Origin: Dictyostelium discoideum
Lineage: Eukaryota
Length of the DNA: 64,000 bases
NCBI GenBank assembly: GCA_000004695.1
Contig: CM000152.2
Span: 4,512,001 to 4,576,000 of the forward strand
Direction of reading: 5' to 3'
Each line of letters begins with the position of its first letter. Positions within the stretch are counted from its first letter, which is position 1. Below are positions 13,403 through 64,000 of the stretch, piece after piece. The notes under the pieces were generated by a model. It searched no databases. It was not told the origin of the DNA and worked only from the letters and a program-made list of their open reading frames with translations. The position numbers were made by a program, and so were the translations under genes.

Positions 13403-13940
13403 TAAAAAAAATAAACAATCAAATGGTAAAAGAAAACTGGGGATTGGAGCCATTACTAATAGATGAATGCAACATAGTAATGCTACCAGATGTGATTAGA
13501 TATTCATGCATACTATTATTTAATAAAGAAGATGATATCTCAATCATTAAAACAAACATTGATGCTATAAAAGGTAGTAAGCATCCAATAAGAGCCTTCA
13601 TCTCTGAATATAACAATAAAGAAATAAGAGATGTTAGAAAAAAAAAAAACACAAGTAATAAAAACCAACAACCAACAACTACAAATACAACTAAATCAAT
13701 ACCATCAACTCCACCAACAACTAATGCATCAACAACCACACCAATAACAACCACACCAATAACAACCACACAAACAACAACCACACCAACAACAACCACA
13801 CATCAATTACCAACAAGCAATACAACAATCTACAACCTAAACAAAACTACTACTACTACTACTACTACTACAAAACCTATCAATAAAATTACTACAAGCA
13901 ATGGTACCAAGTTTCCAATTGCCAGTAGTATTAGAAAATA

Positions 13941-33445: not shown

Positions 33446-34297
33446 ATGGAAATTTCGCCAACTAAAATTAAATCAGTTTTATTAAAATTAATCCAGATTT
33501 TATTTTTTACAATTTCAATTTCAATTTATATTGATTTAGTTGGTAATAGTAATAATAAAAATAATATTAATAATAATATAAATAATGAAGAATTATTATT
33601 AAATAAACAAATACAAATTTATTATTGGTTTGTTGGAATTATATTATTTTCAATTGCATGGAGTATTGGTACATTTAAATGGTTATCAAGATTCTTTTTA
33701 ACATTTTTCATAATTAAATCAATTCAACAATTAATTCAACATTTACCAATTGAGTTTTATGATAAACTTAGAAATTTAATAGTTTTTGGAACATTTTCAA
33801 AATTTGATTTCACAAGTACTGGCATAATCACTGAATCATTACCAACATTATATGATAACTTTTTTGGTGGAAACATTTCACCATTTTCAATTGAAATAAT
33901 TGGTATTCAATCTTGTTTAATCATTTTCTTTAGTACATTAGGTTTCAATATTTATTTAGCTGACAAATTTTGGTTAATTAAAACCATCATTGTAGATTGG
34001 ATAATCAGTGCTATACTTTTAATCATTTTCTCCATCACTGACCTATTAATGAACCAAAGTAATGTTTATTCCGTAATCTCCTATATCTTTGGTTCAAATG
34101 TCTTAGGTTTCGGTACCATCAAAATCCAAGAATTCCTTTGGAACCTTTCTTCAAAATATGATGATAAATTAAATTCAACAATAATAAAATCCACAAAATC
34201 AAATAATAACAATAATAACAATAATAATAATAAACAAGATGATAATATAATTTATGATACAGATTCCTCATTTAATGGACAATCATCTTCTTCCTCT

Positions 34298-34332
<35 letters not shown>

Positions 34333-34801
34333 AGCAACAACAACAACAACAACATTGGTTAATGATAATTCAATAATTTCAGAATATGTTACAGAGAAAA
34401 TTATGATTGAAGAAAATGGTGAAATTAAGGAGCAGGAAGTTCAAGTTGATAAATTAGATTATAGTAAATTAAATGAAGATCAATTGAATGCAATTTTAAG
34501 TGAACCAATTTTAGAAACCCAAATTACAACTAGAAATGTTTCATATCATAAATCAACGAGATTTATAAATAATTTAATTGCACCCGAAAATATTAATTCA
34601 AGAATTAGTGCAAAGGAATTTGTTGGCGTAATTATTTTATGGGTTTACACAATTTCAAATTTTATAATTTCAGATTATTCACTTTTAACAATTCCAAATA
34701 TTTTAGTTGTAGTTGGTTTCTCTGGTACAATTCTAACTTATTTATCAACAATTTCTGCTAAAAGATTAACAAATAAAAATCCTTCAAAAAGAGAATGTTA
34801 A
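33446..34801 (+). CDS. Hypothetical multi-pass membrane protein, 451 aa, with poly-Asn/poly-Ser low-complexity inserts.
   Basis: Single track ORF. Several hydrophobic segments of about 20 aa (e.g. IYYWFVGIILFSIAWSIG, CLIIFFSTLGFNIYL, IISAILLIIFSITDLL, VIILWVYTISNFIISDYSLLTIPNILVVVGFSG). No recognisable catalytic motif. Confidence 0.5.
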
Positions 34802-35455: not shown

Positions 35456-35668
35456 ATGTTATGCTTTAATGATTTTAATTTTCCAAAGGAATGGGAAGTA
35501 GTACCAAATTCATTCAAATATATTGATATAGTAATAAAAGAAATAATTGGTTTTGGTTTAATCAAAGAAAATGATCAAGAATTAAAAATGATTGTAAATC
35601 AAGCCATTTCAATTGCTGCTTATTTTTGGCCATATGCAAATGAAGAACAAATGGTAATGGGAGGGTTA

Positions 35669-35715
<47 letters not shown>

Positions 35716-36845
35716 TAAATATTAAAAAAAAAATATAACAATAATAAATAAATAAAATAAAATAAAATTTTTTTTTTTTTTAAAAACTAATATTTTCGAA
35801 AATTATAATTATTACTATTATAGGTCAGTACTGTGTTGGTGTGTCTTATTTGATGATCCACTAGATACAAATAAATTAGATGAAAAAAAAGGTTTAGAAA
35901 TTGTTAGTAGAACAGAGAAATTACTTTTAACTAGAACTTTACCAAATAACCCCACAAATCTTGAAAAGTATGGATTTACAATTTTTGAAAAATGTTTAAA
36001 ATATTGTGGAACCAATACTCATATGTATGACATGTTAATTAAATTAACAGTTCAGTGGATTTATTCTATAATTCCATTCAATAAATTAAATGTAAGTAAT
36101 TTTTTTTTATTTTTTTTATTTTTAAATTAATAAAATAAAAAAAAAAAAATTAGAAATTAATATTAAAACTGTTAATTTTAAAATAGGAATCACCAGTTCA
36201 CCCAGAAACCCTAAAATATATAAGAAAAATAAATATTGGTATAGAATTCACTGTAAGTTTATTTATTAATTTTTTTTATATTTTATTTATTTAAGAAACG
36301 GTTTAGATTATTAATAATGCAATATTTTTATTAATTTTTATTAGCAATCAATATTTTATATAATAAATTCAAATAATAAAGTTGATTTGATAGTTTTGGC
36401 AAATCCTTTATATCAGAAATTGGTTGATTTAAGTTCATTAAATATTTCGTTTGTTAATGATGCAGCAAGTTTTTGTAAAGAAATAAAAGATGGCGGTAGT
36501 GATAATAATTTATTTATTATTTTAATGAAAAGATTAGGTGGTATTGAATTTATTAAAGAAGCATATAAACAATTAACAGATTTATCAAATGGATACATAG
36601 ATGAATTTTGTTATTATGAGAAATTATTACTTTCAAGTCTTTCAAAACAACAACAAAATGAAATTCAAATCTTTATTGACCACCTAAAATATTTAATGAA
36701 AGGAAATCAAATATGGTCAACCAAAACAATAAGATATGCAACGGAAGATCATCCAATTATTCAATTAAGAAATTCAACTAATAAATTAATTGAAAATAAT
36801 ATTAATATGGATAAAGTATCATTAACAAATAAAAACTATATTTAA
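35456..36845 (+). CDS. Microbial-type terpene synthase (TPS family), 347 aa. Four exons: 35456-35664, 35824-36091, 36187-36252 and 36345-36845.
   Basis: Contains an Asp-rich DDxxD motif (CVLFDDPLD) and, about 140 aa downstream, the NSE/DTE-type motif NDxxSxxxE ([10 protein letters not shown]). These are the two Mg-binding signatures of class I terpene cyclases, and the spacing is typical. Introns are GTTAGT/GTAAGT...AG with consistent phases (2, 0, 0). Confidence 0.65.
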
Positions 36846-36957
36846 TATATTTATATTATTATATTTAAAAAATAAATAATAAATAATTTTTGAAATTCAA
36901 AAAAACACACTGTTAATATGTTTTAAATTATCGACGTTATTAAAAATCATTATTTAT

Positions 36958-37339
36958 TTATTTTTTGGCAGCAGCTTTTTTGGCAGCTAATTTGGCTTTA
37001 GCAGCAGCGACGATGGTCTTTAATGGTTGTCTTGGGTTTTTGTGGGCTTTGACCTCTTGCATATCACCACGAACGTATCTTTTGATTTCAGTACCAATAC
37101 GAGCGTATCTTTGATTTCTGGCGAAACCTAATTCAACCTATTTTATGTATGTTATTTTATATTTTTTAATTTTAACATGATTAATACCTATACATCATAT
37201 CTATCTATAATAACCTGTTTCTTCTTTATCTACTTACACCTTTTGAGGAGGTCTTTTTGTGGACGACGGCTTTTTTAATACCGTTTCTGTGGTCCTTTCT
37301 GTTTTTGTGATGGGTTGAGTGATTCTTTGACTTGGCCAT
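36958..37339 (-). CDS. rpl29: 60S ribosomal protein eL29 (L29e), 93 aa. Two exons on the minus strand: 37339-37238 and 37137-36958.
   Basis: MAKSKNHSTHHKNRKDHRNGIKKAVVHKKTSSKG|VELGFARNQRYARIGTEIK...AAKKAAAKK aligns with eukaryotic eL29 (MAKSKNHTxHNQxRKxHRNGIKKP...SLKGVDPKFLRNxRFA...). GTAAGT donor and AG acceptor on the minus strand. Confidence 0.8.
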
Positions 37340-38104
37340 TTCTATTTTTTTTTTTTTTTTTTTTTTTGATAATGGGTATGTGATAATTGTATGTTAGTTT
37401 CAATCTTTAATCTTTAATCTTTAATCGTGTTATTGATTATTAATCAATCTTCTCCATTGATAATCATTAACTAATATTGGGTCTATTTGTCTCTTTATCT
37501 CTTCTCTCTTTCTATGTCTCATAGAAAGAAAAAGTGATTACGGATATACATATAAAATGTGACATACCTTTGTGGTGATAAAAAAACAATAAATTTGAAC
37601 AAAAAAAAAAAATTCGATAAAAAAAAAAATTTTATGCGGGCACTCGCTCAAAAAAAAAAAATTGGATTAATTTTTCGTGACTAAACGTTTTTCATTTTTC
37701 ATTTTTTCATTTTTTTTATTTTTTTTTTTTTTAATAAGATAATTTTTTTTTTTTTTTTTTTTTTTGGGAAGATAATTAAAATATTTTCCTTTTTATTATT
37801 ATTATTTTTATTATTATCATTATTGTTTTATTTTTATTATTATTATTATTGTTCCAAATATTAATATTTTTATTTATTATTATTTACTTATTTATTTAGT
37901 TAATTAATTTTAAAATTAATAAAAATTGGAATAATATTATTTCTATAATTTATTAATTTTTAAAAATTTACTATTGGTTTTTTTTTTTTTATTTAAATAT
38001 TTTTTTTTTCTATTGGTTTTTTTCTTTTTTTTTTTTTTTTTTTTCTTCTTTTTTTTTTTTTATTTTTTTTTTTTTATTTTTTTATTTTATTTAATTTTAA
38101 CAAA

Positions 38105-39239
38105 TTAATTTGAAGAACCAGATGATAATATTACACTTTTAATCGAGTCAACCCATTTTTGAGGATTATGAGCAACATCTTCTAAAAGATATTTTCTTTT
38201 TGGAGTTTTAATAACGAAATTATTGTTTGATTTTAATTTTGGTTTTATTGAATCGGACCATGGAATTTCGCCTTTAAGTTCCATTTTCTTTGGATCTATA
38301 TAAATTAATCTTGGTGTATCAGTTAAAATTAATTGTCTCTTTTTTATAGAGAAACCTTTACGTTTCCAAACTAAACCTTGATAAATGACATTTTCACCAT
38401 TATTTAACCATTTACTAATATTATTACTACTACTACCACCATCTCTACTACCGCCACTACTACCACTACGTTGAGTTGGTTGTTGAGATGATGACGATGA
38501 CGATGATCTTGGTGTTGATAAATTTCCATTACTAATATTAAGGTTATTACTACTATTACTATTACTATTACTATTACTAATATTATTGCTACTACTATTA
38601 TTATTATTATTTATATTATTTATATTATTATTATTATTATTATTATTATTACATGAATTTTGTTGATGATTTTCATCAACATTATTATTTCTTGGTGTTG
38701 TACAATCTAAAGATGGTGAAAATAATTCATCACCATCGAAAATGATTTTTTCTTGAGGTGGTTGAATTGGTGGTGGTGGGTGAGACATATTTGATAAAGA
38801 GGACCAATTGAAATCTTGAAAGAATGGATGTGCTTTTAGGTTATCAAAACCACCAGGTGTTGAACTTGAACCTAAACGATCAGTTGGTTTAATTACTAAT
38901 AGTTTTTCAACTAAATCTTTAATCACTGGATTCATATTGATTGGATAAACCAATTCTCTATTCGATACTTTTTGAAATGTTAAAAATTCAGTTTTACCAC
39001 GAAATGGCACTCTTCCACTTGCCATTTGATATATAATACACCCTAATGCCCATAAATCTGAATCAGTTGATGTCTCTTTATTACTAATTAATTCTGGTGA
39101 TACATATTCTGCTGTACCAACAAATGAATTATTTCTTGTTAATTTTGGTATTTCTGTTGTTTTTATATTATTTATATTTGCATTTATATTTGTATTTATA
39201 TTTGTATTTGTATTTGTATTTGTATTTGAACCTGCCGCT

Positions 39240-39289
<50 letters not shown>

Positions 39290-40331
39290 TGTTGTTGTTG
39301 TTGTTGGTTGTAAATTTGGTGATATCATTGAGTCTGTGGTACTTGCACTATCCACACTACTTGTTCTATTTTGTTGTTGTTGTGTTAAATCAGTACTAAC
39401 TGATAAATTATTTACATTATTTAATAAACTACTTAAATTACCAGAACTATTTGTTGGTAATTGTTGTTGTTGTTGCTGCTGTTGTTGTTGCTGTTGTGAT
39501 GATTGTGGTGGTGGTAAAATTTTACCAGTACCAAAATCAGTAATTTTAACATGTAAATCACTAGACATTAAAATATTTTCAGGTTTTAAATCTCTATGAA
39601 CAATACCTAATGAATGTAAATGCTCTAATCCACTTATAATTTCCGCTACATAATATTGACATGATCTATAATCAAATGATCCAACTTTTTTAATTTGATG
39701 TAATAAATCACCTTGTGAACATAATTCTAAAACATAATCTTTATAAAATAAAATAAAAATAAAAAAAAAAAAAATTAGTATTTTTTAATTCTTATATGAA
39801 CACATTAAGAATATAATTAAATTAATAATAAAAATGAAATTAATTTGATATTATTAATTAGCTAATTAATTAATTAATTAATTAATTAATTAATTAATTA
39901 ATTCTTACATAAACATTGTTCAGATCTAAAAGTAAAAAATAATTTTACAATATTTGGGTGATTTGATTTACAAAAGATTTCTTTTTCAATTTGTACATAT
40001 TTTATTTTATTTTCTTTAATGATTTGTTTCTTTTCTAATATCTTTATTGCGTATTGTTGTTGTGTTTCTTTTTCTGTGCCTAAAACCACTGCACCATAAG
40101 ATCCTTCTCCTAAAACTTTACCAATTATAAAATCTTCAATAGTTTTCTTTTTAGCTGATTGAATAGATGGTGATGATAATGATGGTGATGATAAAAATGG
40201 TGAAAGTGACATATTTAAATCAATTGCTGATGCTGTTGCAGTAGTGGTTGTTGTATTATTAGGAGGATCAGTTGATGATGATGGTACACCACCACCACCA
40301 CCACCACTCGTATTTGTAATAACAATATTTT

Positions 40332-40335
<4 letters not shown>
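38105..40335 (-). CDS. pdkA: 3-phosphoinositide-dependent protein kinase-1 (PDK1) homologue with a C-terminal PH domain, 686 aa. Two exons on the minus strand: 40335-39909 and 39738-38105.
   Basis: Exon 1 has GKVLGEGSYGAVVLG...YAIKIL (Gly loop/VAIK). Exon 2 has ...DYVLELCSQGDLL...HSLGIVHRDLKPENILMSSDLHVKITDFGTGK... (HRDLKPEN, DFG) followed by ...SPELI... Its C-terminus [45 protein letters not shown]...NPQKWVDSI parallels the PDK1 PH domain ([37 protein letters not shown]). The total of 686 aa matches my memory of PdkA rather than PdkB, which is longer. Intron GTAAGA...AG, phase 1. Confidence 0.75.
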
Positions 40336-40394
<59 letters not shown>

Positions 40395-40626
40395 CCTTCT
40401 TTACTTATTATTATTATTTGTAATTATTATTAATAATTTTGATTGTGACTTTAGGTGTGGTACTAAATTTTCGGTATATTATTAACAAAAATATAGAACA
40501 AAAAAAAAAAAAAAAAAATATAAAAAAAATAAAAATCCAAGTGTTGCGGAATCAAATCTTATGTGGTGTAATGATGGAAATTTTATTATAAAATTAATAT
40601 GGCTGGGTCAGTTATTCAGTTTCCTT

Positions 40627-40660
<34 letters not shown>

Positions 40661-41149
40661 AAAAAAAAAAATGATGGATGAGATGAATACAAATAACACA
40701 AGATAAAAACATTTAAAATTCATTATTATTTTTGAATTTATATAAATAAGTTTACTTATTTTTAAACCATACAAAATCAAACCACCATTTTTTATTTTTT
40801 TCAAATAATTTCAATTAATATTTTTATTTTTTTTTTTTTTTTTTATTTTCTTTTTTAAATAGACACCGAAATTTTAGCATTAAGGAATTTAAATTAAAAT
40901 TTCAATATTTATATCCATTAATGCTACCACTTTAATTTTTATTTTTTTATTTTTTTTTATTATTTTTTTTTTTTTATTTTTAATTTTTTTTCTTTTTCTT
41001 TTTCTTTTTCTTTTCACTTGTCTCTTATCTTTTTTTTTTTTTTTTTATTTTTTTAATTTTTTAATTTTTTATTTTTTTAATTTTTAATTTTTTAATATTG
41101 TCACCATCAATTAATGAAATAATAATAAAAATAAAAATAAAATATATTT

Positions 41150-41183
<34 letters not shown>

Positions 41184-41202
41184 TAATAATAATTATAATA
41201 AA

Positions 41203-43374
41203 ATGACAATTCCATATAAAATTTCATATTTTTTAATATTTTTTACGATACCACTTATGGGATCATTCCTATTATTATTTATAAGATTTCTATTCCTAGA
41301 AAATAAACATCATATAAGGAATTTTAATTATAATGGTGATAATAATAATAACAATCGAAATAAGAAATTAAAAAAGTATTTCATATTATCATTATTTTTA
41401 TATACATCAGCTATAATTGGATTCATTTTCACTTTATCATCATTTTCAAGTTGGAATTATTTACCTATAGAATTAACAACTATTACTTCAATAATAATAT
41501 TATTATTTTTTACATTTTATCAATTAATAATTCAATTTGAAGTTGAAAGAAAGAAACGAATTTTTAAAGTTAGAAAAAATAAAAATAAAAAATATTTCAT
41601 TCAAAGCCCACCAAATTTTAATAATGGTATAATTTTAAATAATAATAATAATAATAATTATGAAGATGATAAATCAAATATTAAAGAAAATATATTATTA
41701 GAATCATTAAATAGTAAACAAGATGGAGTAGTAATAGCAGCAGCAGAAGAAGAATATTATGAACAAGAGGAAGAAGAAGAAGAAGAATATAATGAAAATA
41801 AATCATTTTATAATTATAGTAATCAAATTGATACAAAATTAGGAATTTTAGATAGATTTAAAAAGAAGATAATTTATTTTATAAAGGATATTATAGAGAC
41901 TATTAAATTTAAACCAAAATTATCAATAACTTTAATATTGATATCACTTTTAATTTCAATAATGATACCAGTACTTTTGAATGATGTTTGTATTTGTTCA
42001 CATCCAATGAATGTTTCAACATCATTCACTAGAAAACTATTTCAAGAATCTTATTGTAAAAATGGTGAAATCTGTTTCCTTTATTTAACATTACCCAAAG
42101 ATGCATCAACATCAATGGTTTTACAAATTCATACATTTAATAAACCATCAAATATTATAATTACAATAACAAAGAATACTAATACTACTGGTGGTGGTGG
42201 TGGTGGTGGTGGTGGTAGTGGTGAAGATATTATATCAATTTCAAAATTTAATTTCATATCAATGTCAAAAATAATTAATGATTATCCAAGATATATAAGT
42301 TATATTGATTTAATTGGATTAAAAGAGAATACAAATTATAGTTTTAAAGTTAATTTCACAAGTAAAGAAATTCAAAAAACTTTAAATACTTATGATGGTG
42401 TAAATCTATTTCAATTTAAAACATTTTCAAATCAATCAGATTCAATCATTAAATTTGTATCTGGTGGTGATATAGTAATAAATAAAGATTCAAAAGATTT
42501 AGCAAAACATGCATCAATTAATTTTAATCCTGATTTCATTGTTGTTGGTGGTGATGTGGTTTATGAAGATGGTATAGGTTCATGTTATAAAAGATGGGAT
42601 GAAAAATTATCATTTTTCAATACTTATTTTAATTTAAAAATTAGTAATAATAATAGTAGTAGTAGTAGTAGTTTATTTTTAAAACCAATATTATTATCAA
42701 TTGGTAATCATGAGGCTGGTGCATTTTATCAAACTCATAAACAAGTACCATTTTATTTTAAATATTTCTTATTTGAATTGGATGGATTTAAAGATGGAAT
42801 TGATGAAAATAAAAACTCTTATCATATTCATAAAATTGCATCACATACATCAATAACTTCATTGGATAGTTGTGTAGTATCGACATGGGATCAACAAGCT
42901 CAATGGTTACATAATCAATGGAGTAATGAGGAATTCAATAATACAAATAAATTAGTAGTTTATCATCATCCAATTTATCCTGCTTGGAATTTGGATGGTT
43001 TAATACCAGAGTCTGGTAGAGATGTAATGATACCATTATTCGATAAATTTAAAGTACCTTTTGTTTTTGAAAATCATGAGCACCTTTTTAGACGTACAAA
43101 GAAATTAAAAGGAAATAAAATAATAGAGAATAATTCTACAACAACAACGACAACATTATCTCAAGGTACTTATTATGCTGGTTCAGGAAGTTTTGGTATT
43201 TCAAATACAAATATAATTCCATCCAATAATGATGAGTCATTACCTTGGTATTTAGCTAAAAGATCTTATTGTAATCATCTTTGGTATATAACTGCAACTC
43301 AAAAAGAAATTCTCGTTGAGGCATTTGCACCAAATGGTGATAAAATTGATAAAATTAATTATATTCAAAATTAA
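41203..43374 (+). CDS. Membrane-anchored calcineurin-like metallophosphoesterase (purple-acid-phosphatase-like), 723 aa.
   Basis: The N-terminus has several TM segments (FLIFFTIPLMGSFLLLFIRFLF..., ITLILISLLISIMIPVLL). The C-terminal half carries the metallophosphatase motif series GDxxY (VVGGDVVYEDG), GNHE (SIGNHEAG), HHP (VVYHHPIYPAW) and ENHEH (VFENHEHLF). Confidence 0.6.
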   Translation: MTIPYKISYFLIFFTIPLMGSFLLLFIRFLFLENKHHIRNFNYNGDNNNNNRNKKLKKYFILSLFLYTSAIIGFIFTLSSFSSWNYLPIELTTITSIIILLFFTFYQLIIQFEVERKKRIFKVRKNKNKKYFIQSPPNFNNGIILNNNNNNNYEDDKSNIKENILLESLNSKQDGVVIAAAEEEYYEQEEEEEEEYNENKSFYNYSNQIDTKLGILDRFKKKIIYFIKDIIETIKFKPKLSITLILISLLISIMIPVLLNDVCICSHPMNVSTSFTRKLFQESYCKNGEICFLYLTLPKDASTSMVLQIHTFNKPSNIIITITKNTNTTGGGGGGGGGSGEDIISISKFNFISMSKIINDYPRYISYIDLIGLKENTNYSFKVNFTSKEIQKTLNTYDGVNLFQFKTFSNQSDSIIKFVSGGDIVINKDSKDLAKHASINFNPDFIVVGGDVVYEDGIGSCYKRWDEKLSFFNTYFNLKISNNNSSSSSSLFLKPILLSIGNHEAGAFYQTHKQVPFYFKYFLFELDGFKDGIDENKNSYHIHKIASHTSITSLDSCVVSTWDQQAQWLHNQWSNEEFNNTNKLVVYHHPIYPAWNLDGLIPESGRDVMIPLFDKFKVPFVFENHEHLFRRTKKLKGNKIIENNSTTTTTTLSQGTYYAGSGSFGISNTNIIPSNNDESLPWYLAKRSYCNHLWYITATQKEILVEAFAPNGDKIDKINYIQN

Positions 43375-43468
43375 TTATAATAAATTCCAATTTTTAATAA
43401 AAATTAATTTTTTTCAATCAACTATAAAACATTTTATTTTAAAAGATATTTTTAATTCATAATATTTT

Positions 43469-43501
<33 letters not shown>

Positions 43502-44004
43502 ATAAACAAATAATAAAAATAATATTTCAGATTTTTTTTTTTATTATTTTATTTTTTTTTTTCTTGGGTTCGGGATTATTTTTTTTTTTTTGGGTTTTGG
43601 CCTAGGAATACAAAAAAAAAAAAAAAAAAAAAAGAGATAAAAAAAGAGGAAAAAAAAGAGATAAAAAAAAAGAGATAAAAATTAAAATGTAAATTAAATT
43701 TTTATATTTTTTTTATTAAAAATAAAACTCCAAGTTTAATTAATTGCCACCTTTTTTTTTAATTTTATCTTTTCTTTTCAATTTTTTTTTTTTTTTTTTT
43801 TAGGGTAAAATTTCTTTGTTTTTAAAATTAAATTATTTTTAAATTTAATAAAAAAAAAAAAAAAAATTATGGATGTTTGGAATTATCTTGAGCTTATTAA
43901 ATTTATTTTTTATGTTTTAATGACTATATAAATGACATTCACCACTTTTTTATTTATTTTTAACAAAATTTAATTTTTTGTGTTTTTTGGTTTTTGTGCG
44001 CCCC

Positions 44005-44047
<43 letters not shown>

Positions 44048-44536
44048 CGAACAAAAAATAAGGAAAAATTTTCACATCTTAATTTTCTCTGCCTTATGAA
44101 ATCTTCACAATAAAAAACTCCATCCTAAAATGTTTCTAAATAAATAAACCTATTTTTTTTTTTATTTATTTTTTTATTTTTATTTTGTTACGTAATGATT
44201 ATTGGCAATGTTGTTACAAGGATGGGATCTTAAGAATGAATAGCTATTGGAACAGCGGCAGACGACCATTTGCCCGCAGTAGGTTTTTTATTTTTTACAC
44301 TTTCTATATTCTAACTTCGAATAATATATAATTTAATTATAGCTATCAACCACAAAATTTTTAAAAATAATAAAAAATTATAAATAATGTTTTTTTATTT
44401 TTTATTTTTTTTTTTTTTATTAAATAAGTTACTTTATTTTAAAATAAATTATAATAATAATAATAATAATAAAAATAATAATAATAATAATAAAAAAAAT
44501 AATAATAATTTTTTAAAAAATTTCATTCAACATCAA

Positions 44537-47500
44537 ATGGGTTTTAAAGTAAATAAAAATTTAAATGAAACAAATGACAATAGTGATAATGATGTTGCAA
44601 TTATTGGTATTGGATTTAGATTACCATCAGGTAATTTAAATAAATCAAATGATTCTCCAATTATTTTATGGGATAATTTAATGAAAGGATTTGATGGTAT
44701 GGTTGAAACATCAGAAAGATGGAGTGATAATTTCAATCAACTTGGTGAAATTTCAAATAAAAGTGGTGGATTATTACCATTAGATGAATGGAAATCATTT
44801 GATCCATTATTTTTCGGTATTAACCCATCAGAAGCTCAAACAATTGATCCTCAACAAAGAATACTATTAAAATGTACATGGGAGGCAATAGAGGATTCAA
44901 ATATTGATCCAATTAAAATTCGTGGTTCAAAAACATCAGTTTACATGGGTGGTACTTCTGTTGAATATAAAGAATTAAATAAGAATTCAAATGAAATTAA
45001 TCCAAATATTTTTGGTTCAACATTTAATACAATTGCGAATCGTATTTCATATTGTTTTGATCTTAGTGGTGAGTCTATGACATTAGATACTGCTTGTTCA
45101 TCATCTTTAAATGCAATTATCTTAGGTTATCAATCAATTAAAAGTGGTACTTCCAATTTATCAATTGTTGGTGGTGTTAATTTAATATTAGGTATGTAGT
45201 TTTATTAAATTATATAATACATATGTATATATTCATTTTTAATTACTAATAATTTTAAATTTAAAAAATAGATTCAAATTTATCAAAATCTTATTCTTAT
45301 TTAAATATGTTAAGTAAGAAAGAAGGTAAATGTATGTCATTTGATTCACGTGCAGATGGATTCGTTAGAAGTGAGGGTGCTGGTGTATTTATATTAAAAA
45401 GTTTAAAACAATCAATAATTGATGGTAATAATATTTATTGCGTTATTAAAGGAGCAAGTTCAAATATTGATGGTAATGGTTTAAATGATAAACAAAACTT
45501 TTATTCACCATCATCATCTTCACAAGCTGAAAATATTAATAGAGCACTATCATCAACTAAAGGATCTGTAAAAATTGATGATATTGTTTATGTAGAAGCA
45601 CATGGTACTGGTACACCAACTGGTGATCCAATTGAGTTAGAAGCAATTTCAAGAGTTTTCAAAACCAATAATAATGATAATAATAATCAACAACACCAAA
45701 ATCCAATATTAATTGGATCATTTAAAAGTTCCGTTGGTCATTTAGAATCAGCCTCAGGTTCAGCATCATTAGTAAAATGTTGTTTAATGTTTAAAAATCA
45801 ATATTTAACACCCAATGTTAATTTCAAAACACCAAATCCATCAATTAAATTTGATGAATGGAATTTAAAAGTTGTTACAGAACCAATACAATTTAAAGAT
45901 GTAAAGAAATCAAACAACTTTTCAATGATTTTAAATAATTTTGGTATCACTGGTTCAAATTGTTGTTTAATTTTATCACAATACAATGGAAACCATAATG
46001 ATGAACAGGAAAATCAACAACAACAACAACAACAAGGAAAACAATATTTAATTCCATTTTCAGCAAATTCAATACAATCATTAAAACAATATGAATCATT
46101 AATTAATGAAAATCAATTTAAAGAATCAAATGATTTTAAAGAATTTGTTAAACATCAAATATATAGTAAATCAATATCACTTTATCAACGTTCGGTTTCA
46201 ATAGCATCAAATTGGAATGATTTTAATGAAGGCATGAAATCAACAAATAACAACAATAATAAAACACAAACATCAAATTCAAAATCATCAAATATTTCAA
46301 TAATTCCAAAGAATCCAATCACTGTAATGGTATTTGCAGGACAAGGTTCACAATATAGTACAATGGCAATGGAATTATATAATAATGAACCAATATTTAA
46401 AGAATCAATGGATAGATTAGATAATAGATTATTAAGATATTATGGATACTCTGTATTGGAGAAATTTAGATCAAGCTGTGATAGTGATAGTATTCATTAT
46501 CCAACAATTGCTCAACCATCAATGTGTATGCTAACCATATCATTATTCGAATTATATAAACATTGGGGTATTGAAACATCATTTATTATTGGTCATAGTT
46601 TAGGTGAAATTCCAGCTGCTTATTGCTCAGGTATGATTTCATTAGATACTTTATGTTTTTTGATTTATCATAGATCAGTTGCACAAACTCATACACATCG
46701 TAATGGTAGAATGTTATCAATTAATATTAGTCCTGAAGAATATAATTCAAATTATTCATTAAAATACCCAAAAGTTGAAATTGCATGTTATAATTCACCA
46801 ACTTCGATTGTACTTGGTGGTGAAGAAACAATATTAAATCAAATATCAAATGATTTAAAAGAAAAAGGAATATTCTCAGCGATGTTAGGTTCACTATCAT
46901 CATTCCATACATCAAGCCAAAGAATTATTAAAGACCAAGTCATTGATTTAAATATTGAATGTAAATTAGCAAAAATTCCATCATTTTCAACAGTTACAAC
47001 CAATTTATTCAATGAAACGACATTATTCAATTCAGAATATATTTTTAATAATATGGCTCTACCAGTTAAATTTTCACAATCAATTTCAAATCTATTTAAA
47101 CATATTGAAATAAATAATTTAGGAAGTGATATTGTTTTCATTGAATTAGCACCACATCCAACATTACAATTTTATTTAAAACAAATGGCATCATCATATG
47201 AAAAAGTCAATTCAAATTTAAAAATATCAACATATTCACCACTTCACAAGAAAAAGAATGATATCGAAGAGATTCAAAAAACAATTTCACAACTTTATTG
47301 TAATAATGGGTACAGTATTAATTTTAAATCACAATTTAATAATGATTTTAAAATTAATAAAATCAATTCAATATTACCAAATTATCAATGGGAAGATGTA
47401 ATTCACTGGAGAGAAGATTTAATTCATCAAAAACATAATACTCAAGGACCACCAATTGATCAACTTGGTTTATCATTAATTGAAAGTTCACCAAATTTAA

Positions 47501-47809
47501 AATCATATCAAACATTTATTGATATTTCTAGAAAACCATTCCAATATCTTAAAGGTCATTTTGTGAATGGCAAATATTATTTCCCAGGTTGTGGTTATAT
47601 TGATAATCTTTTAAAAATTTATGGTTCACAAGATTTTACAATTGCTTCAATGGAATTTAAATCACCATTAATTTTTACGGAAGGTGTTAGTCAATGTTTA
47701 CAAACAAACATTTTCCAAACTGGTAAATCAGAATTCAGAGTTAACTATCATTTTAAAGATACAAAATCAAATGAATGGATACAATCATCAGTTGCTCATT
47801 TCCAATTAT

Positions 47810-47879
<70 letters not shown>

Positions 47880-50800
47880 TAGTGACGATGGAAATAGTAC
47901 CAATAAAAAATATAATATTGAAGATATTATAAATAATAAATGCAATTTCACAAAATTATCAAACAATGAACTTTATGAAAATATTAAATCAAAAACTGGT
48001 ATATATTATACTGGAGAATTTAAAACAGTATCAAACCTTTATGTGGGTGAAAATTGTTCATTAGCAGAAATACCAATAACAATTAAATCTTATGAATCAT
48101 CATTTTTCTCACCATCAATATTAGATACTTGTTTACATGGTACAATTGGATTAATTGATGAAAAATCTCAAATTGTATTTGAAAGAGTTGAAGGATTCGA
48201 ATACCATTCTTCAAATATTCCATCACAAAATGAATTATCATCATTAAAACATACAAAGCTATATTCATTAACAGAATCATTCAAAAGGGTTGGAGATTCA
48301 TATTCAAGTTCAATTACAGTTATGTTGGAGGATGGTAGAGTTTTAATTGAATTTAAAAAGGTTGTATGTAAATCTTTAACTAATGTTATTGATTCATTAA
48401 TAATACAATCACCATTAAATGAATTATATTCAACATGTATGCAAACAATTGATTCACCAATTCAACCTTCTTTATCATCATCATCATTGATACAACTACT
48501 TGGCAACACCAATGAAAAAGTTAAAATTAATTATAGTCAATTCATTTCAAATCAATTGTATTACAATATAATTAAAAGATGTCCACAACTTAATATTGAA
48601 ACAATCAAATCAAAGAATATTGAACAGTTAAAAGAAAGTTACAACTCTTTAAATACTAAATATTCAAAATTATTCAAATCAGTATTTGAAACAATTCAAT
48701 CGATTGGTATAAATAATGAAGATAATAGTGAATTTAATGAAACAAACATTCAGCATTATAAAATCTTATTGAAATCAACTAGAATAATTGCAAAATTATT
48801 ATTCCCATTAAAAGATGATGATTTAAGTAAGGATACAGGACAATCATTATTTGAAAATGGAATTTTAGATGAATTCAATTCAAATTATTTTAATAATAAT
48901 AATCAAGTTATTAGCAACATAATTAAAGAATCACTTTTACCAATATTAAATGAAAAGATGGTATTCAGAATATTTGGATTTGGAGGTTTTGGATCATCAT
49001 TATCATCAGTTGTTTTAAATAAAATCAATGAATTACTTCAAGAATTTCCAAATAGCGAAATTGATATAGAATTCACTCATGCTGATATTTCATCATCATC
49101 ATCTTCTTTTGGTAGTAGTACACCAAATTTCAAACCAAATTTCCCACAAATAAATGAAAAAGTTCATATAATTTATAAATCATTAGATCTTGAAAAACAA
49201 TTATCAAGTGAACAAATGATTAAACCATCATATTATGATTTTGTAATCATGTCAAATGTTTTACATTTTACAAAAGATGTTAAATCGGTATTGGATCAAA
49301 TCCATCAAATTTTAAAACCAAATGGCCAAATTATATTAGTAGAACCTATTAATAAATCAATTTTACTTGATAATATATTTGGTATTTTCGATCAATGGTG
49401 GAGTTTTACAGATTTAAATATTAGAAGAAATGATTGTTATATTTCAAAAGATACTTGGAATAGCTTACTATTAGATTGTAATTTTGATAATAGTAAAGTT
49501 TTAATTTCAACAAAAGAAATTTCAAACTTTTATATAATTCAAACTCAAAAACCTTCAATTTCAAATTTAAATACAAATTCAACTACAAATGGTGATACAG
49601 TTATAATCTATGGTGATGAATTAAAATTTATAAGTTCTGATAGTAATAAAGAAATTAAAATTTCAAATATTCAACAATTTAATGAATTAATTGAAAAATC
49701 AATAATAACAGATGAATCAATTATTTACTTTACAAAATCAACAAATCAATTAACAGTAGATAATTTCAAATTAGTAACATTGGAATATATTCAAATCAAT
49801 CAAAAACTATTATCAAATAATTTAAAATGTAAACATGTATTGATTACATTAAATTCTGACAATATGAATTATTTATCAGCATCATTAATAGGAGCAACTA
49901 GATATTTTGAAGAATTTCCACAATTAAATTTATTCAATTTAGATTTCGATCAAAATTCAATAAATAATAATGAATTAGAAAAAACAATTAAATTGTTATT
50001 AGATTCAAACCAATTCATTCAAAAAGAATTCTTTATAAAGAATAGTAAAGTTTATTACGAAAGATATAAGAGAGAATTGAATTTAAATAATTTCTTTAAA
50101 GAATCCCAATCATTTTCAAATGAAAAGAACCAATTATACGCAAAATTATCACCAAATTTAGAATATATTTTAAAATCAAAAAAGGTTATAAAAGATGATG
50201 AAATTGAAGTAGAAGTAAAAGCAACAGGTATTAATTATAAAGATTATTTAATTTATTGTGGATTAGTATCAGCTGAATCAATTAATCGTTATGGTGATGT
50301 TAATAATCCTGAATTTGGTATTGAATACTCTGGTATTATTTCACGTATTGGTAATAATATAACAAATTTTGAAATTGGTGACCAAGTTTATGGTATGGGA
50401 TTAGATACAATTTCAACTCATGTAATTGTAAATCCAAACTATTGTTATCATAAACCAACAAATATCAGTTTTCAAGAAGCAGCATCAATACCATGTGTTT
50501 ATTTAACATCATTATGCTCAATATTTAATATTGGATGTTTAAGTGTTAGTGGTAATGAATCAATTTTAATTCATTCAGGTACAGGTGGTGTAGGATTATC
50601 AGCATTGAATATATTAAAATGGAAAGGTCATAAATCTCATGTATTTGTAACAGTAGGTTCAAAAGAAAAAGAAAAATACCTACTAGATACATATGGTGAT
50701 TTTATAACTGGAATTTATTCAACAAGAAATAAAAATTATGTTGAACAAATTAAATTAAAATTAAAACAATTAGGATCAAATAAGAATGGTGTAGATTTAA

Positions 50801-53616
50801 TATTGAATACATTATCAAGTGATTATATGGAATCAAATTTCAAATGTTTAAATACAAGTGGTAGAATTGTAGATTTATCTGTGACTCATTTAAATCATAA
50901 TGAATATATTAATAATAATAATTTTAAATTCAATTTTGGTTATCATAATTTTGAATTAACATTTATTAATAAATTTTTAATTCAAAAATCATTAAAGAAA
51001 ATTAAAATTGGAATTGAAAGCGGTGAATTAAAATTAATACCAATAACTGCATATTCAAACTCAAATGCAAAAGAAGCAATTGAATTTATTAATCAACGTA
51101 AACATATTGGTAAAATAGTTTTAAATAATGATAATGATATTTTAGATTCATTATTTAATAATCTTTCAAATGAAAGAAATTCAAAATTTACAACTCTTAA
51201 ACCAAATTATCAAATAAATAAAGACCATTTGGGTTCAAATATAATAGTTACAGGTCAATCTGGTATAATTTTAGAGATTTTAAAATGGATTGTTAAATTT
51301 TCAGAAAATGTTAAAAATATTATTATATTATCAAAATCATCTATGAAATGGGGTTTGGAATTATTAATTAAAAAGAATAAACATATAAATTTCAATTTTA
51401 AGAGTATTGATATTGGTGATTCAAATCAAGTTGATAAATCAATTGATGAAATTTTAAATGAAAATTCAATAACAAATATTGATTCAATTTTTCATTTTGC
51501 ATTCGAACATACTATATGTGATGTAAATGATATTGAAATTAATCATTTGACCAAATCTCATGGTGCAAAAACAATGGGTGCAATTAATTTACATAATCAA
51601 TCAATTAAAAGAAATTGGAAATTAAAACAATTTATTTTATCATCATCAGTAACATCGATGATTGGTTCAACTGATCAATGTACATATGTTTGTTCTAATA
51701 GATTATTGGATTCATTATCAAAGTATAGAAATTCTATTGGATTACCTTCAATATGTACAAACTATGGGTCAGTACAATCTGCAGGTATTGTTTCAAGAAA
51801 TAAATCTATTGAAAAATTATTAGATGCTCAAGGTTTAGATCCATTATCAATTAATATGATATTAGGTTCATTAGATTCACAAATTCAAAATGTAAACAAA
51901 TCAACAAATTTAATGGTATCACCGTTCAATTTTAATAATTTCTTTGAAACTTTTAAAAATCATTCAATGATTCATAAATTTGATTTCATTACAAATCTTT
52001 TAGAAAATAATAAATCAAAAAATAGTAATAATGGTAATACAGAAGGAGAATCAAATATTGATACATTATTTTTAAATAAAGTTTCAGAATTATTATCAAT
52101 GGAATTACCAAAGATTAATCAGGATTTGAAGTTGGTGGAGTATGGTTCAGATTCATTATTAATTGTTCAATTAAAAAATTGGATAGATAAAGAAATCTTT
52201 CCAAATTTAATTACAATTCAACAACTTCAAACTAATACAATTTCATCATCAATTAAAATCATTACAAATCAATTTAATTCTAAATCAACTGATGGTAGAA
52301 AAAAACAAAAACAAAATGGAATTAATGTTTCATCAAATAAATCATCATTACCAACTTTAGAATTTTGGAAAAATGAAACTAAACTTGATGAAGAAGAATT
52401 TAATTTTATATTAGATTCTTCAACCAAATCAAAAATAAATCATAAAGATCAATTAAAAGATAATGAAAAAAGAATTCTTTTAACTGGTAGTACTGGATTT
52501 TTAGGTGCATACCTACTTTGGCATTTAATTCAAATGGACAATTGTAAAATTGTTTATTGTTTATTAAGAAACAAAAAACTATTTAATAATCCATTAAATG
52601 ATATAATAGATAATTTAAAACATCATCAATTATATGATAAACAATTAAATGAAAGTCATTTATCAAAAATTGTTGCAGTTGTAGGTGATTTATCAAAAAT
52701 TAAATTTGGTTTATCAGATGATAATTATTCATTACTTTCAAATGATACAAATTTATTATTAAATTGTGGTGCTGATATTAATTTATCATCAAATTATGAA
52801 GAGTCAAAACAAGTAAATGTAGTTGGTACAAAAGAAATGATAAAAATATCATTAATTGGTAATATAAAACCAAAACCAATTATTACAATCTCATCATTTT
52901 CAGTATTTTATAATCAAAAGTTAAATCAAGAGTTTGATGAATCAATTGTTACACCAAAACTTGAAACGATTAATGATTTACCAGCAGGTTATATTCAAAG
53001 TAAAGTTATTTCAGAAATTATATTAACAGAAGCATCATCAAGATTCAATATACCATCAGCAATAATCAGAGCACCAAGTATTTTCTCAAATCCTGAAACT
53101 GGTATTGGTCATAGTGCTGATATCATTCAATTAATGTTACAATCTTGCTTTAAATTAGGTTATTACCCAAGTGGTAATGGAGTTGATTTTGATCTTCTTT
53201 GTTCACCAATAACATGGGTCGCTGATAATACTATTAAAATTATTTTTAATGATAATATTATTAACAACAAAGAACCTCAACAATTAACATCACCATTAAA
53301 ACCAAATATTTACAGTGTATATGGAAAAGTTTTAGATTTATTTGAGATTTTACAAGTATTAAAGAGTGATGAAGGTGGCAATTGTAAAGAAATTGAAATT
53401 AATCAATGGAAGCAAATGGTAATGGATTCAAAAGAAAAAGCATGTATTAAATTAAGAACTTTTCACACTTTACAATTTGATGGTAGAAATATTTTAAATA
53501 AAGGTCATGGAATTTCAAATAAACAAAAATCATATCTACAATCAATTGGATCTTTTGGAAATGGTGGTGAAATCACTAATCAAATGATATTCAAGAATGT
53601 TCAATCAAATAATTAA
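44537..53616 (+). CDS. Iterative type I polyketide synthase, about 2999 aa, with domains KS-AT-DH-cMT-ER-KR-ACP and a C-terminal thioester reductase (R) domain. Two exons: 44537-45191 and 45272-53616.
   Basis: KS: [22 protein letters not shown] (active Cys), then after the intron [48 protein letters not shown]: GHSLGE. cMT-like region: ...[28 protein letters not shown]... ER (MDR fold): ...[16 protein letters not shown]... KR: [15 protein letters not shown]: [14 protein letters not shown] (phosphopantetheine Ser). Terminal R: [17 protein letters not shown] (NAD(P)-binding) ...[13 protein letters not shown]... One 80-bp intron (GTATGT...AG, phase 1) sits in the KS. Confidence 0.9.
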
Positions 53617-53970: not shown

Positions 53971-54041
53971 TGCGTATGCTGGGAATCGAACCCAGTTCGC
54001 ATCCGTGGCAGGGATGCATCATACCACTAGACCACATACGC
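53971..54041 (-). tRNA. tRNA-Gly (anticodon GCC), 71 nt.
   Basis: Minus-strand sequence GCGTATG-TG-GTCT-AGTGGTA-TGAT-G-CATCC-CTGCCAC-GGATG-CGAA-CTGGG-TTCGATT-CCCAG-CATACGC-A. The acceptor stem is perfect, the T-arm has the canonical TTCGATT loop, and the anticodon loop has U33 and GCC. It is very close to eukaryotic tRNA-Gly(GCC). The track ORFs 53843-54037 and 53970-54260 over it are spurious. Confidence 0.85.
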
Positions 54042-55933: not shown

Positions 55934-56006
55934 CACCCATTGTGGGTCTCGATCCCACGACCTGCAGCTTAGAAGGCTGCCGCAATTCCAACTTTGCTAA
56001 ACGGGC
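55934..56006 (-). tRNA. tRNA-Arg (anticodon UCU), 73 nt.
   Basis: Minus-strand sequence GCCCGTT-TA-GCAA-AGTTGGAA-TTGC-G-GCAGC-CTTCTAA-GCTGC-AGGTC-GTGGG-ATCGAGA-CCCAC-AATGGGT-G. The D, anticodon and T stems are perfect. The acceptor stem has two G-U wobbles (1-72 and 5-68), and the T-loop has A at position 54, which is unusual and makes a slightly degenerate or low-activity copy possible. Confidence 0.6.
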
Positions 56007-58420: not shown

Positions 58421-59393
58421 ATTAAATTAAATTAAAATTTAAAAAAATAATAAAAATTCTGATTTTTCGGTTTAGTTGGAATAACGCCCTTACTTTTAAT
58501 TATCTCTTTTATGTATGTTTACTTTTATGATATTAGTCTTTCACTCTTTCTATCCTTCATATTAAAAAACATTACTTTAAAGATTGGACTGTTTGATAAA
58601 AGATTGAACAAATGTGACAATGGATTGAAGATTAGTGTGAGTGACTTTTACACTTTTTTTTTTCTAATTTTAACATAAAACAAATACATTAAAACAAATA
58701 ATTAGATACAATCCTTATATTTCGTATACAATGACACCTCATGATGAAGAAGTCGACTCTTCAGATTAGAGGAATAACAGTAGTATTTAAAACAAAATAA
58801 AAATGCATTACAATGGCCCTTCTGTTTGCAAGATTAACGCTGTACTGCTTAGGCGGTACAACGACACTTCCTACTCACATTGTAAACATGCATCTTTTAT
58901 AAAGTAATATAAAACAAGATTGTATCAATTAATTTAATAATAATGCTCAAATACAAAGACACCACAATATAAATTATTAGTGGAATAACAGTTAAACAAA
59001 GACACCACAATATAAATTATTAGTGGAATAACAGTTAAATAAAGACACCACAATATAAATTATTAGTGGAATAACAGTTAAATAAAGACACCACAATATA
59101 AATTATTAGTGGAATAACAGTTATATTGATGCATTGTTATAATTAAAATAATTTAAGATAATATTTATTATCAATTAAATAATATAAAGACACCACAATA
59201 AAAATATATTAGTGGAATAACAGTTAACATATATTAATACTTATATTTAATTATTTAATTAAAAATTAAATTAAATTAAATTAAATAAATTAAATTAAAT
59301 TATATAATTAAATTATGTAAATTAAATTAAAAAATTAAATTATAAAATTAAATTATATTTAATAAATTTTATATATAATTGTTGGTGAAAGTC

Positions 59394-60542
59394 ATGTCAT
59401 CAACTACTACTCCTTCAAAGAAAGCCATCCGTAAAGCCAAAGTGTCTTCCACCGCCAAACGTGCCGCTGAAGTGACAACCGCCTCCGATGATGCTATTAC
59501 TGTTCAAGTAAAATCAAAAAAGACTCTTCGTCCCACTGAAGTTGATGATGAAATTTATTCAACTGAAAGCACTGATGTATCCGACGTCGAAGTCAGAGAG
59601 AAAGTGCCAAAGAAATCAAAGACCAATTCCATTGAAGCTAAAACCATTGACGCTTTAAAAAATGCTGCCACTGCTGTCATCTTCATGAATCTCTTTACCA
59701 TCCACTGCTCCCAGAATGGTGTTGAACCAACCTTGAAGACCATTATGGACAATGGTGCTGCATCAAATGAATTATTTCAATTGCTTCAACCTACCCACAA
59801 TGAATCAGTTAAGAACAACGATAAAATTGAAGGTGAAACATTGAAGAAGCTAATCCACCGTAACTTTAGATCCAAGACTTTGGTTCCATTCAAAACTGAC
59901 TACGAAGCTGCCAACACTAAAGTAGTCGAAGCTATTAACCATCGTAACTGCTACTCAGCCCAAGATGTTATAAAAAACATCGAAGCCATTATGAGTTACC
60001 ACAATGTAATTAATCCGGTGTATCTCATCCATGGTACTGCTGAAGTTCAATTAGAGTATCTAAGATCAATTTTAGATAATAATATCCTTGCTTTGTTAAA
60101 GATGGTCGTACCAGACTGGTTACAAACTGATGTTGCAATCAAACTCAACACTCAAACCGATATCACCGAGTGTCGTGAAGCCATCACCGAGTTGGTTCTT
60201 AACAATGCTGATAAGTTCTCGAGAAGAAGACCTTCCGATTCCGCATCGAATACTGATGAGAAGTTTCCATTAAAAAAGAATCATGCTACTCCAAATCATA
60301 ACTCTCATAACAGGAATTCCTTTGATGCTCAAGCTGATAAGATTAGAGCTGCAATATTACCCGAAATAAGAAAAGACTCTAAGGTAGACCTCAAAAAGAT
60401 AAGAAGCAGTTTCATCGTTTACCGTCAAAGCAAAGGCTACTGTCTCAATTGTGGTAAATCAAATCACTCCACATCTACATGTAGAATTGATCCGGTCGAT
60501 GCCAAAGCCAATCCAGGTCCATCAGCCAAAAAGCAACAATGA
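59394..60542 (+). CDS. LTR-retrotransposon Gag with a C-terminal CCHC zinc knuckle.
   Basis: Track ORF 59379-60542. The first ATG is at 59394. CX2CX4HX4C lies near the C-terminus. A TGA stop is followed in frame by pol. Confidence 0.7.
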   Translation: MSSTTTPSKKAIRKAKVSSTAKRAAEVTTASDDAITVQVKSKKTLRPTEVDDEIYSTESTDVSDVEVREKVPKKSKTNSIEAKTIDALKNAATAVIFMNLFTIHCSQNGVEPTLKTIMDNGAASNELFQLLQPTHNESVKNNDKIEGETLKKLIHRNFRSKTLVPFKTDYEAANTKVVEAINHRNCYSAQDVIKNIEAIMSYHNVINPVYLIHGTAEVQLEYLRSILDNNILALLKMVVPDWLQTDVAIKLNTQTDITECREAITELVLNNADKFSRRRPSDSASNTDEKFPLKKNHATPNHNSHNRNSFDAQADKIRAAILPEIRKDSKVDLKKIRSSFIVYRQSKGYCLNCGKSNHSTSTCRIDPVDAKANPGPSAKKQQ

Positions 60543-63500: not shown

Positions 63501-64000
63501 GAAGTTTGGAGAGATATATCAATCGATTTCTTATCGCTACCAAAAACAATGTATGCAATAAACGGATTTACAGTTGAAGTCGATCAAGTTTGTGTCATTG
63601 TTTGTAGATTATCTAAAATGGTTCATATAGTTCCATGTCATAAGACAATAGATGCCCAACATACCGTTCAATTATTGTTGAATCATGTGTTCAGACTCCA
63701 TGGTTATCCAAGAACAATCGTCTCCGATAGAGATCCAAGATTCCTTTCAGAAATATGGGAGAGATGGGCAAAGACGATGGATTCTAAACTCAAGATGACT
63801 GTGGCACACAGAGCACAAGCTGATGGTCAAACTGAAAGAATGAATAGAGAAATTATTAGAATATTAACTAAAGCCTCAACAGAGTATGGGGAGAATTGGT
63901 CAGATATCATTCCACTTATTGAATTTGCAATGAACTCATCAATGAGCAAGTCTACAAAGATGTCACCATTCCAAATCGTTTATGGATTCAATCCACCAAC
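60543..64000 (+). CDS. LTR-retrotransposon Pol polyprotein (PR-RT-RH-IN), partial. It has no start of its own, is in frame with gag after the TGA, and runs off the window.
   Basis: A continuous open frame of about 1150 codons with no stop, hand-translated. Motifs are those listed for the element. It is absent from the ORF track, probably because it has no in-window stop. Confidence 0.7.

Follow-up and report, generated by a model that had tools for sequence, protein, structure and literature searches.

Does the close spacing of a terpene synthase (TPS), a metallophosphatase and a polyketide synthase (PKS) gene in Dictyostelium discoideum mark a hybrid secondary-metabolite cluster? The three genes lie within 18 kb of a 64,000-nucleotide stretch of contig CM000152.2 (assembly GCA_000004695.1, positions 4,512,001 to 4,576,000), hereafter the window. 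An earlier note on this DNA had proposed such a cluster and had itself cautioned that the grouping could be coincidental. Our results favor that caution: the locus probably holds three annotated, independently acting genes that are neighbors by chance. We prefer this reading because unrelated genes are interleaved with the proposed members, coupling chemistry is lacking, the genes appear to have reached the locus at different times, chance expectation is high, and co-expression appears not to be specific to this pair.

Gene models were rebuilt over the window from open reading frames (ORFs), splice sites and Pfam matches. The genes on which the question turns are as follows.

33446 to 34801, plus strand: multi-pass membrane protein of 451 aa; an ORF with hydrophobic segments and no Pfam match.
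35456 to 36845, plus strand: DdTPS5 (DDB_G0281467), beta-pinacene (diterpene) synthase; four exons, 347 aa.
36958 to 37339 (low end approximate), minus strand: rpl29, ribosomal protein L29e; two exons, 93 aa, PF01779 at 1.2e-16.
38105 to 40335, minus strand: pdkA-type kinase of the PDK1 family; Pkinase and PH_3 domains on two large exons.
41203 to 43374, plus strand: DDB_G0281473, membrane-anchored metallophosphoesterase resembling purple acid phosphatases (PAPs); single ORF, 723 aa.
44537 to 53616, plus strand: pks18 (DDB_G0281475); 2,999 aa, one intron at 45192-45271.

All three genes of interest are already annotated in D. discoideum, and splice models, Pfam matches and identities of 100% to D. 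discoideum AX4 proteins (DDB_G0281467 and DDB_G0281473) confirmed the three same-strand genes that the earlier note had drawn from the letters alone, as well as the two housekeeping genes, rpl29 and pdkA, that it had placed between them on the minus strand. The window has a G+C content of about 20%, Asn- and Gln-rich coding regions and short, AT-rich introns. The pdkA product is 686 aa long in another D. discoideum assembly (L009), where the gene has the same span of 2,231 bp. The 451-aa membrane protein contains long Ser, Thr and Asn tracts and had no meaningful match in NCBIfam either.

Proximity alone carries little weight here. DdTPS5 and pks18 are 7.7 kb apart with three unrelated genes between them, and the proposed members are not contiguous, as rpl29 and pdkA separate the TPS from the phosphatase gene. 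The family sizes quoted in the earlier note, about 40 PKS and 9 TPS genes, are correct. When 9 TPS genes and 25 to 40 PKS loci were placed randomly in 34 Mb, at least one TPS gene fell within 7.7 to 10 kb of a PKS in 19 to 27% of the trials, so that chance alone would be expected to produce such an adjacency in roughly one genome in four. Furthermore, the phosphatase was picked as a cluster member post hoc.

The terpene synthase itself is beyond doubt. Splicing of its exons (35456-35664, 35824-36091, 36187-36252 and 36345-36845) yields a product carrying DDPLD and NDAASFCKE, which correspond to the DDxxD motif and the NSE triad (NDxxSxxxE) noticed earlier, and matching Pfam PF19086 (Terpene_syn_C_2) at 4.9e-11, above the gathering score. 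By motifs and fold, it is a class I microbial-type terpene synthase. The full-length product is the protein named 'Beta-pinacene synthase' in UniRef, and the label DdTPS5 is taken from the supplement of the Kin 2018 transcriptome study (PMC6198379). The enzyme is already annotated and biochemically characterized. It converts geranylgeranyl diphosphate to the hydrocarbon beta-pinacene, given off as a volatile, and farnesyl diphosphate chiefly to (E)-beta-farnesene; its diterpene product was found in D. discoideum's volatile bouquet (PMC6524965). The published D. purpureum orthologues are DpTPS2/9 (PMC6156593). An unbroken stretch of about 50 T lies in the first intron (35665-35823). The gene is 1,390 bp long in the window and 1,375 bp in assembly L009, and intergenic spacers differ by 11 to 245 bp between the window and L009. 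These length differences suggest homopolymer variation between strains or assemblies.

The polyketide synthase was likewise described correctly as a protein of roughly 3000 aa ending in a thioester reductase. Exons 44537-45191 and 45272-53616 encode 2,999 aa, as does the gene in L009, and the name pks18 again comes from the Kin 2018 supplement (PMC6198379). Pfam domains follow the order ketosynthase (KS), acyltransferase (AT), dehydratase (DH), methyltransferase (MT), enoylreductase (ER), ketoreductase (KR), acyl carrier protein (ACP) and NAD_binding_4, the last being the thioester reductase (R). Signature motifs are intact in KS (DTACSS and HGTGT), AT (GHSLG), DH (HxxxGxxxxP), ER (GGVG), ACP (GSDSL) and R (TGSTGFLG and YxxxK). 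The SAM-binding motif I of MT (about residues 1505-1625, about 48.5-49.0 kb) departs from the pattern hydrophobic-x-G-x-G-x-G; C-methylation is uncertain because of this atypical motif, and the methyltransferase may be inactive. Domain order and motifs identify pks18 as a highly reducing iterative type I PKS with reductive release. The domain set suggests as its most likely product a reduced, possibly methyl-branched aliphatic chain, freed by the R domain as an aldehyde or alcohol.

A full-text literature search returned no paper under DDB_G0281475 or DDB_G0281467, and our literature searches found neither a pks18 product nor a pinacene-polyketide compound. The gene IDs do not occur in the supplements of Glöckner 2016 and of the Pks16 paper, and an exact-sequence look-up of the 2,999-aa model gave no match. 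A homology search with the R-domain region did not return pks18 itself; its matches were limited to stand-alone reductases and KR-ACP-R fragments from dictyostelids and to thioester reductases of bacteria. An off-loading domain follows the ACP in 21 of the 40 D. discoideum PKSs, two of these domains being chalcone synthases (PMC12828403); the remainder, in about 19 of the 40, are most likely thioester reductases.

The domain content of pks18 bears directly on the analogy with fungal and bacterial meroterpenoid pathways that the earlier note had invoked. In such pathways a prenyltransferase joins a prenyl chain to an aromatic polyketide, and cyclization follows. We observed that pks18 is neither a non-reducing nor a type III PKS: it has DH, ER and KR domains and reductive release, and our Pfam search found no product-template, thioesterase-cyclase or chalcone-synthase domain in it. 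A search of the 64 kb for ORFs and Pfam domains, covering ORFs of at least 110 aa throughout and smaller ORFs between 33 and 64 kb, so that outside the latter part it could overlook a split gene with short exons, detected no prenyltransferase of the UbiA or ABBA type, no P450, no acyltransferase and no other tailoring gene. The enzymology of the locus, a soluble class I TPS and a highly reducing PKS with no prenyltransferase nearby, does not fit the meroterpenoid analogy. Terpene-polyketide esters, for their part, require an oxygenated terpene and an acyl-transferring release.

The third gene, DDB_G0281473, does encode a membrane-anchored metallophosphoesterase, as first proposed: it matches Pfam Metallophos (6.3e-8) and has four to five N-terminal hydrophobic segments ahead of its PAP-like domain, and NCBIfam gave no meaningful match. 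Its closest solved relatives are plant PAPs (E=1.5e-6). The five PAP blocks, with seven metal ligands, occur in order as GGDIV (GD at about 422), GGDVVYEDG (GDxxY at 450), GNHEAG (GNHE at 501), VVYHHP (585) and ENHEH (HEH at 625), and with this full metal-binding set the enzyme is probably active. Eight N-glycosylation sequons and the hydrophobic segments ahead of it suggest that the catalytic domain is lumenal or extracellular; it would therefore lie away from the cytosolic pool of prenyl diphosphates on which it had been supposed to act. Orthologues share 82% identity in D. citrinum, 73% in D. firmibasis and 49% in D. purpureum, with pdkA adjacent each time. D. purpureum also has a second, shorter PAP-like paralogue (567 aa; L008, 10001-13891) in unrelated surroundings, and about 1 kb downstream of it lies a stand-alone NAD-dependent epimerase/3-beta-HSD/NAD_binding_4 gene.

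Synteny among relatives indicates how the locus may have been put together. Neighborhoods of TPS and phosphatase homologues were fetched, and the locus proteins were searched by tblastn. Two D. cf. discoideum genomes keep the order glycogen phosphorylase, membrane protein, TPS, rpl29, pdkA, phosphatase and PKS (rpl29 being uncalled but present), a retention that may reflect general collinearity only. The TPS is the fastest-evolving protein in the block: in one of these genomes (L004) it is 79% identical to its AX4 counterpart, whereas the phosphatase reaches 86%, the membrane protein 88% and the PKS N-terminus 93%.

Outside the D. discoideum complex the arrangement is not found. D. citrinum retains phosphorylase, membrane protein, rpl29, pdkA and phosphatase in order, with the membrane-protein stop codon about 180 bp from rpl29. 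At the PKS position (GCA_054859325.1, L005 12730-16383) lie frame-shifted fragments that match KS, AT, DH, MT, ER and KR and cover query residues 126-2220 within 3.6 kb, compared with about 6.3 kb of coding sequence; because the fragments are frame-shifted and compressed in this way, D. citrinum pks18 is a decayed pseudogene. Its annotation divides the remnant into five short 'genes', next to an intact phosphatase gene. D. firmibasis keeps the membrane-protein gene together with rpl29, pdkA and the phosphatase gene, and tblastn found neither a TPS nor a PKS remnant at the locus. D. purpureum keeps the same four genes, followed by a CCT gene (L007 12369-14316) and then by a PKS that lies on the opposite strand and ends at the ACP with no reductase; the 22 kb fetched around this locus contain no TPS. 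In none of these three species did tblastn detect a TPS remnant at the locus, even with matches admitted up to E=5. The synteny comparison with D. firmibasis and D. purpureum that the earlier note had called for thus speaks against the cluster, as both species keep rpl29, pdkA and the phosphatase without the TPS, and the former also without the PKS.

The 451-aa membrane protein is syntenic in all group-4 species examined (by tblastn, 80 to 89% identity to close relatives and 50% to D. purpureum). The place of rpl29 is unchanged in both D. cf. discoideum genomes as well as in D. citrinum, D. firmibasis and D. purpureum, and pdkA has syntenic orthologues in all species examined. In the outgroups the membrane-protein gene directly abuts rpl29 and therefore marks the site of TPS insertion. 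The nearest TPS homologues of D. citrinum (L002, 52%) and D. firmibasis (L001, 44%) were considered as positional orthologues of DdTPS5 and rejected, their neighborhoods being unrelated to the locus and to each other; neither has a PKS within 10 kb. Adjacency of TPS and PKS is kept only in the D. discoideum complex.

The most parsimonious history, as reconstructed from these gene orders, has three steps. The phosphatase would be part of an older conserved block with the membrane protein, rpl29 and pdkA. The PKS would have stood beside this block before the lineages of D. discoideum and D. citrinum diverged, and would later have decayed in D. citrinum, where it was presumably dispensable. The TPS would have come last, and in the D. 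discoideum complex alone, as an insertion of about 2 kb that separated the membrane-protein gene from rpl29.

Expression was taken from the supplement of Kin et al. 2018, which covers 0, 4, 8, 12, 16, 20 and 24 h and separate cell types (PMC6198379). DdTPS5 rises through 0, 1.6, 6.8, 14.3, 32.7, 84.7 and 63.0 over the time course, with cell-type values, in order, of 28, 25, 8.1, 0.8, 45.9 (stalk) and 0 (PMC6198379). The corresponding series for pks18 are 0.06, 2.1, 4.9, 6.2, 11.6, 19.6 and 20.8, and 8.8, 1.1, 0.003, 0.1, 219 (stalk) and 0.1 (PMC6198379). pks18 is therefore strongly stalk-specific, at 219 transcripts per million in stalk compared with about 0 in the cup, in spores and in vegetative cells. 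The phosphatase DDB_G0281473 was absent among the entries listed in the stalk, cup and spore cell-type-specific lists.

The expression comparison that the earlier note had proposed came out positive in part: DdTPS5 and pks18 are correlated, late and stalk-enriched, but this behavior appears not to be specific to them, and the phosphatase is not among the listed entries. Stalk-enriched genes make up 6.2% of all genes, and include 9 of the 40 PKSs (pks3, 10, 17, 18, 19, 21, 24, 25 and stlB; hypergeometric P 6e-4) and 3 of the 9 TPSs (5, 7 and 9; P 0.015). Unlinked PKSs follow DdTPS5 as closely as pks18 does (pks24, r=0.99; pks25, 0.98; pks10, 0.94; pks18, 0.96), and the unlinked stlB falls in the same k-means cluster as DdTPS5 and pks18. 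Because unlinked PKSs correlate equally well and both families are stalk-enriched, the co-expression of DdTPS5 and pks18 appears not to be specific, and it would reflect a feature that the two gene families have in common, not a joint pathway.

Several observations nevertheless weigh against coincidence, and they are best set beside its strongest competitor, in which DdTPS5 was inserted beside pks18 to form a young two-gene pair serving one stalk-specific pathway, with coupling or oxidizing enzymes encoded elsewhere. An oxygenated pinacene derivative could then be joined to, or act with, a fatty aldehyde or alcohol derived from pks18. The time courses of the two genes correlate at r=0.96 on a linear and 0.99 on a log scale, both peak at 20-24 h, and both belong to the stalk-specific list and to k-means cluster 4; a random TPS-PKS pair is jointly stalk-enriched in only about 7.5% of cases. 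Two diverged D. cf. discoideum genomes (TPS 89% and 79% identical) retain the whole arrangement with both genes apparently functional, so that adjacency and both ORFs are kept in three members of the D. discoideum complex. Both genes are intact in that complex and neither is intact at the D. citrinum or D. firmibasis locus, pks18 being decayed or missing where the TPS is absent, which is the pattern expected of co-dependence. In addition, TPS-P450 clusters show that metabolic clustering occurs in D. discoideum (PMC6524965), and polyketide-terpenoid hybrids have been called plausible in this species (PMC12625978).

Other observations speak against such a pair. Joint absence of the TPS and of an intact PKS was set aside as evidence of co-dependence, as there are too few independent events to tell it from chance. 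The sole meroterpenoid-like feature reported in the study that called hybrids plausible was tied to pks24/pks25 (PMC12625978), and beta-pinacene is a hydrocarbon emitted unmodified (PMC6524965). Two housekeeping genes and the phosphatase gene stand between the supposed partners, which reached the locus at different times, and no coupling or oxidizing gene was found in the 64 kb. As the R domain frees an aldehyde or alcohol rather than an activated acyl group, there is no obvious chemistry by which the two products would be joined. Together with the chance expectation and the equally close tracking of DdTPS5 by unlinked PKSs, these observations make a single stalk pathway unlikely, and we regard as still somewhat less probable its specific form, in which DdTPS5 and pks18 are a very young pair confined to the D. 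discoideum complex whose products are combined or act together at culmination.

A second alternative concerns the wider window, which contains, besides a ComC-like gene and the glycogen phosphorylase gene, the following features.

1064-2602: MINDY-family deubiquitinase fam63B (DDB_G0281445), in the stalk-enriched list.
8387-10336: CCT/TCP-1 chaperonin subunit, about 31 kb upstream of the phosphatase gene.
11794-11875: tRNA-Leu(AAG), upstream of and on the same strand as the non-LTR retrotransposon.
13941-17384: non-long terminal repeat (non-LTR) retrotransposon ORF with endonuclease and reverse transcriptase domains.
53971-54041: tRNA-Gly, downstream of pks18.
55934-56006: tRNA-Arg, downstream of pks18.
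59379-64000: Ty3/gypsy-type LTR retrotransposon with a gag-like ORF and a pol ORF.

If the locus were a chromatin domain favoring late stalk transcription, DdTPS5 could have been retained there beside pks18 because the position suited its expression, with no relation between their products. Three genes, fam63B, DdTPS5 and pks18, are stalk-enriched within the 64 kb, against the genome-wide share of 6.2%, and the time course of fam63B correlates with that of DdTPS5 at r=0.90. However, three of about 15 genes is only a mild excess; rpl29 and pdkA lie inside the supposed domain, and they and the phosphatase gene are not among the stalk entries listed. We therefore give this regulatory explanation little chance.

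The full proposal of a three-gene hybrid cluster, in which the phosphatase dephosphorylates prenyl diphosphates to feed or regulate the pathway, has the common strand, the 18-kb span and a probably active phosphatase in its favor, and is nonetheless very improbable, as the phosphatase sits beside pdkA and rpl29 in three species without the TPS (one of them also without a PKS), appears to predate the TPS at the locus and survives without either partner, has a D. purpureum paralogue in unrelated surroundings, is absent from the listed cell-type entries and has a catalytic domain predicted to lie outside the cytosol. Its synteny without the TPS argues against a shared cluster, and we found no positive evidence for including it.

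Chance proximity thus remains our preferred explanation for the 18-kb grouping. Some further features of the window deserve mention in their own right. The CCT genes near the phosphatase loci of D. purpureum and D. discoideum would, if orthologous, point to a local rearrangement. The region of the tRNA-Leu gene and the non-LTR element (11794-17384) is richer in G+C (28-36%), with a layout that we take to fit the tRNA-targeted TRE elements of Dictyostelium. The gypsy element, a few kb from the tRNA-Arg and tRNA-Gly genes, has a 387-aa gag-like ORF with a CCHC knuckle and a stop codon at 60540-60542, right after which the pol ORF (reverse transcriptase, RNase H and integrase; more than 1,152 aa) follows in the same frame and extends past the window end. 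This layout suggests translation by stop-codon read-through.

Were the link between DdTPS5 and pks18 true, it would represent a new type of hybrid cluster in Dictyostelium and the first TPS-PKS cluster in Amoebozoa, as well as an example of cluster birth by gene relocation, caught early in assembly. Caution is warranted where a genome has 40 PKS genes and 9 TPS genes and expression in each family is biased toward late stages and stalk, as a neighboring, co-expressed pair will then be met fairly often by chance. Specialists may find use in two by-products of this analysis, namely the history of the locus, with its TPS insertion and the decay of pks18 in D. citrinum, and the stalk specificity of pks18.

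Comparison with known systems places the locus further. DdTPS8-CYP521A1 (discodiene) and the other TPS-P450 pairs of D. discoideum and D. purpureum resemble it in that a TPS lies near a secondary-metabolism gene with late co-expression (eLife 2019, PMC6524965). In those pairs, however, the genes are immediate neighbors or have a partial CYP pseudogene between them, at spacings of about 0.6-3 kb, whereas here three genes and 7.7 kb intervene. The P450 also has a clear role on the terpene, and the DdTPS8 link was shown by knockout and enzymology (PMC6524965). In contrast, it is not evident what pks18 could do chemically to a diterpene hydrocarbon, and DdTPS5 gives a product that is emitted as it is made.

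Fungal and bacterial meroterpenoid clusters likewise combine terpenoid and polyketide genes in one neighborhood. The pyripyropene, austinol and andrastin clusters contain a non-reducing or type III PKS that forms an aromatic core, a UbiA/ABBA prenyltransferase and usually a membrane-bound Pyr4-type cyclase. DdTPS5 differs in being a soluble class I enzyme that ionizes the diphosphate itself, and pks18 in being highly reducing. Melleolides and fumagillin demonstrate that polyketides can combine with the products of terpene cyclases; here, in contrast, the PKS has a terminal reductase, and neither a P450 nor an acyltransferase was found nearby.

DDB_G0281473 resembles kidney bean PAP (PDB 2qfp, 4dhl, 1kbp) in its five metal-binding blocks, and its catalytic domain aligns over about 190 residues. 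The similarity to plant PAPs is distant, the Dictyostelium protein differing by an N-terminal multi-pass region of about 270 residues and by low-complexity inserts.

Among the D. discoideum PKSs themselves, the architecture KS-AT-DH-MT-ER-KR-ACP-R of pks18 is the commonest (PMC12828403). In expression, pks18 resembles stlB, as both are higher in prespore than in prestalk cells of the slug and then reach very high levels in stalk. The two enzymes differ at the terminus: Steely B, which produces the skeleton of DIF-1, has a type III PKS domain there, whereas pks18 ends in the R domain.

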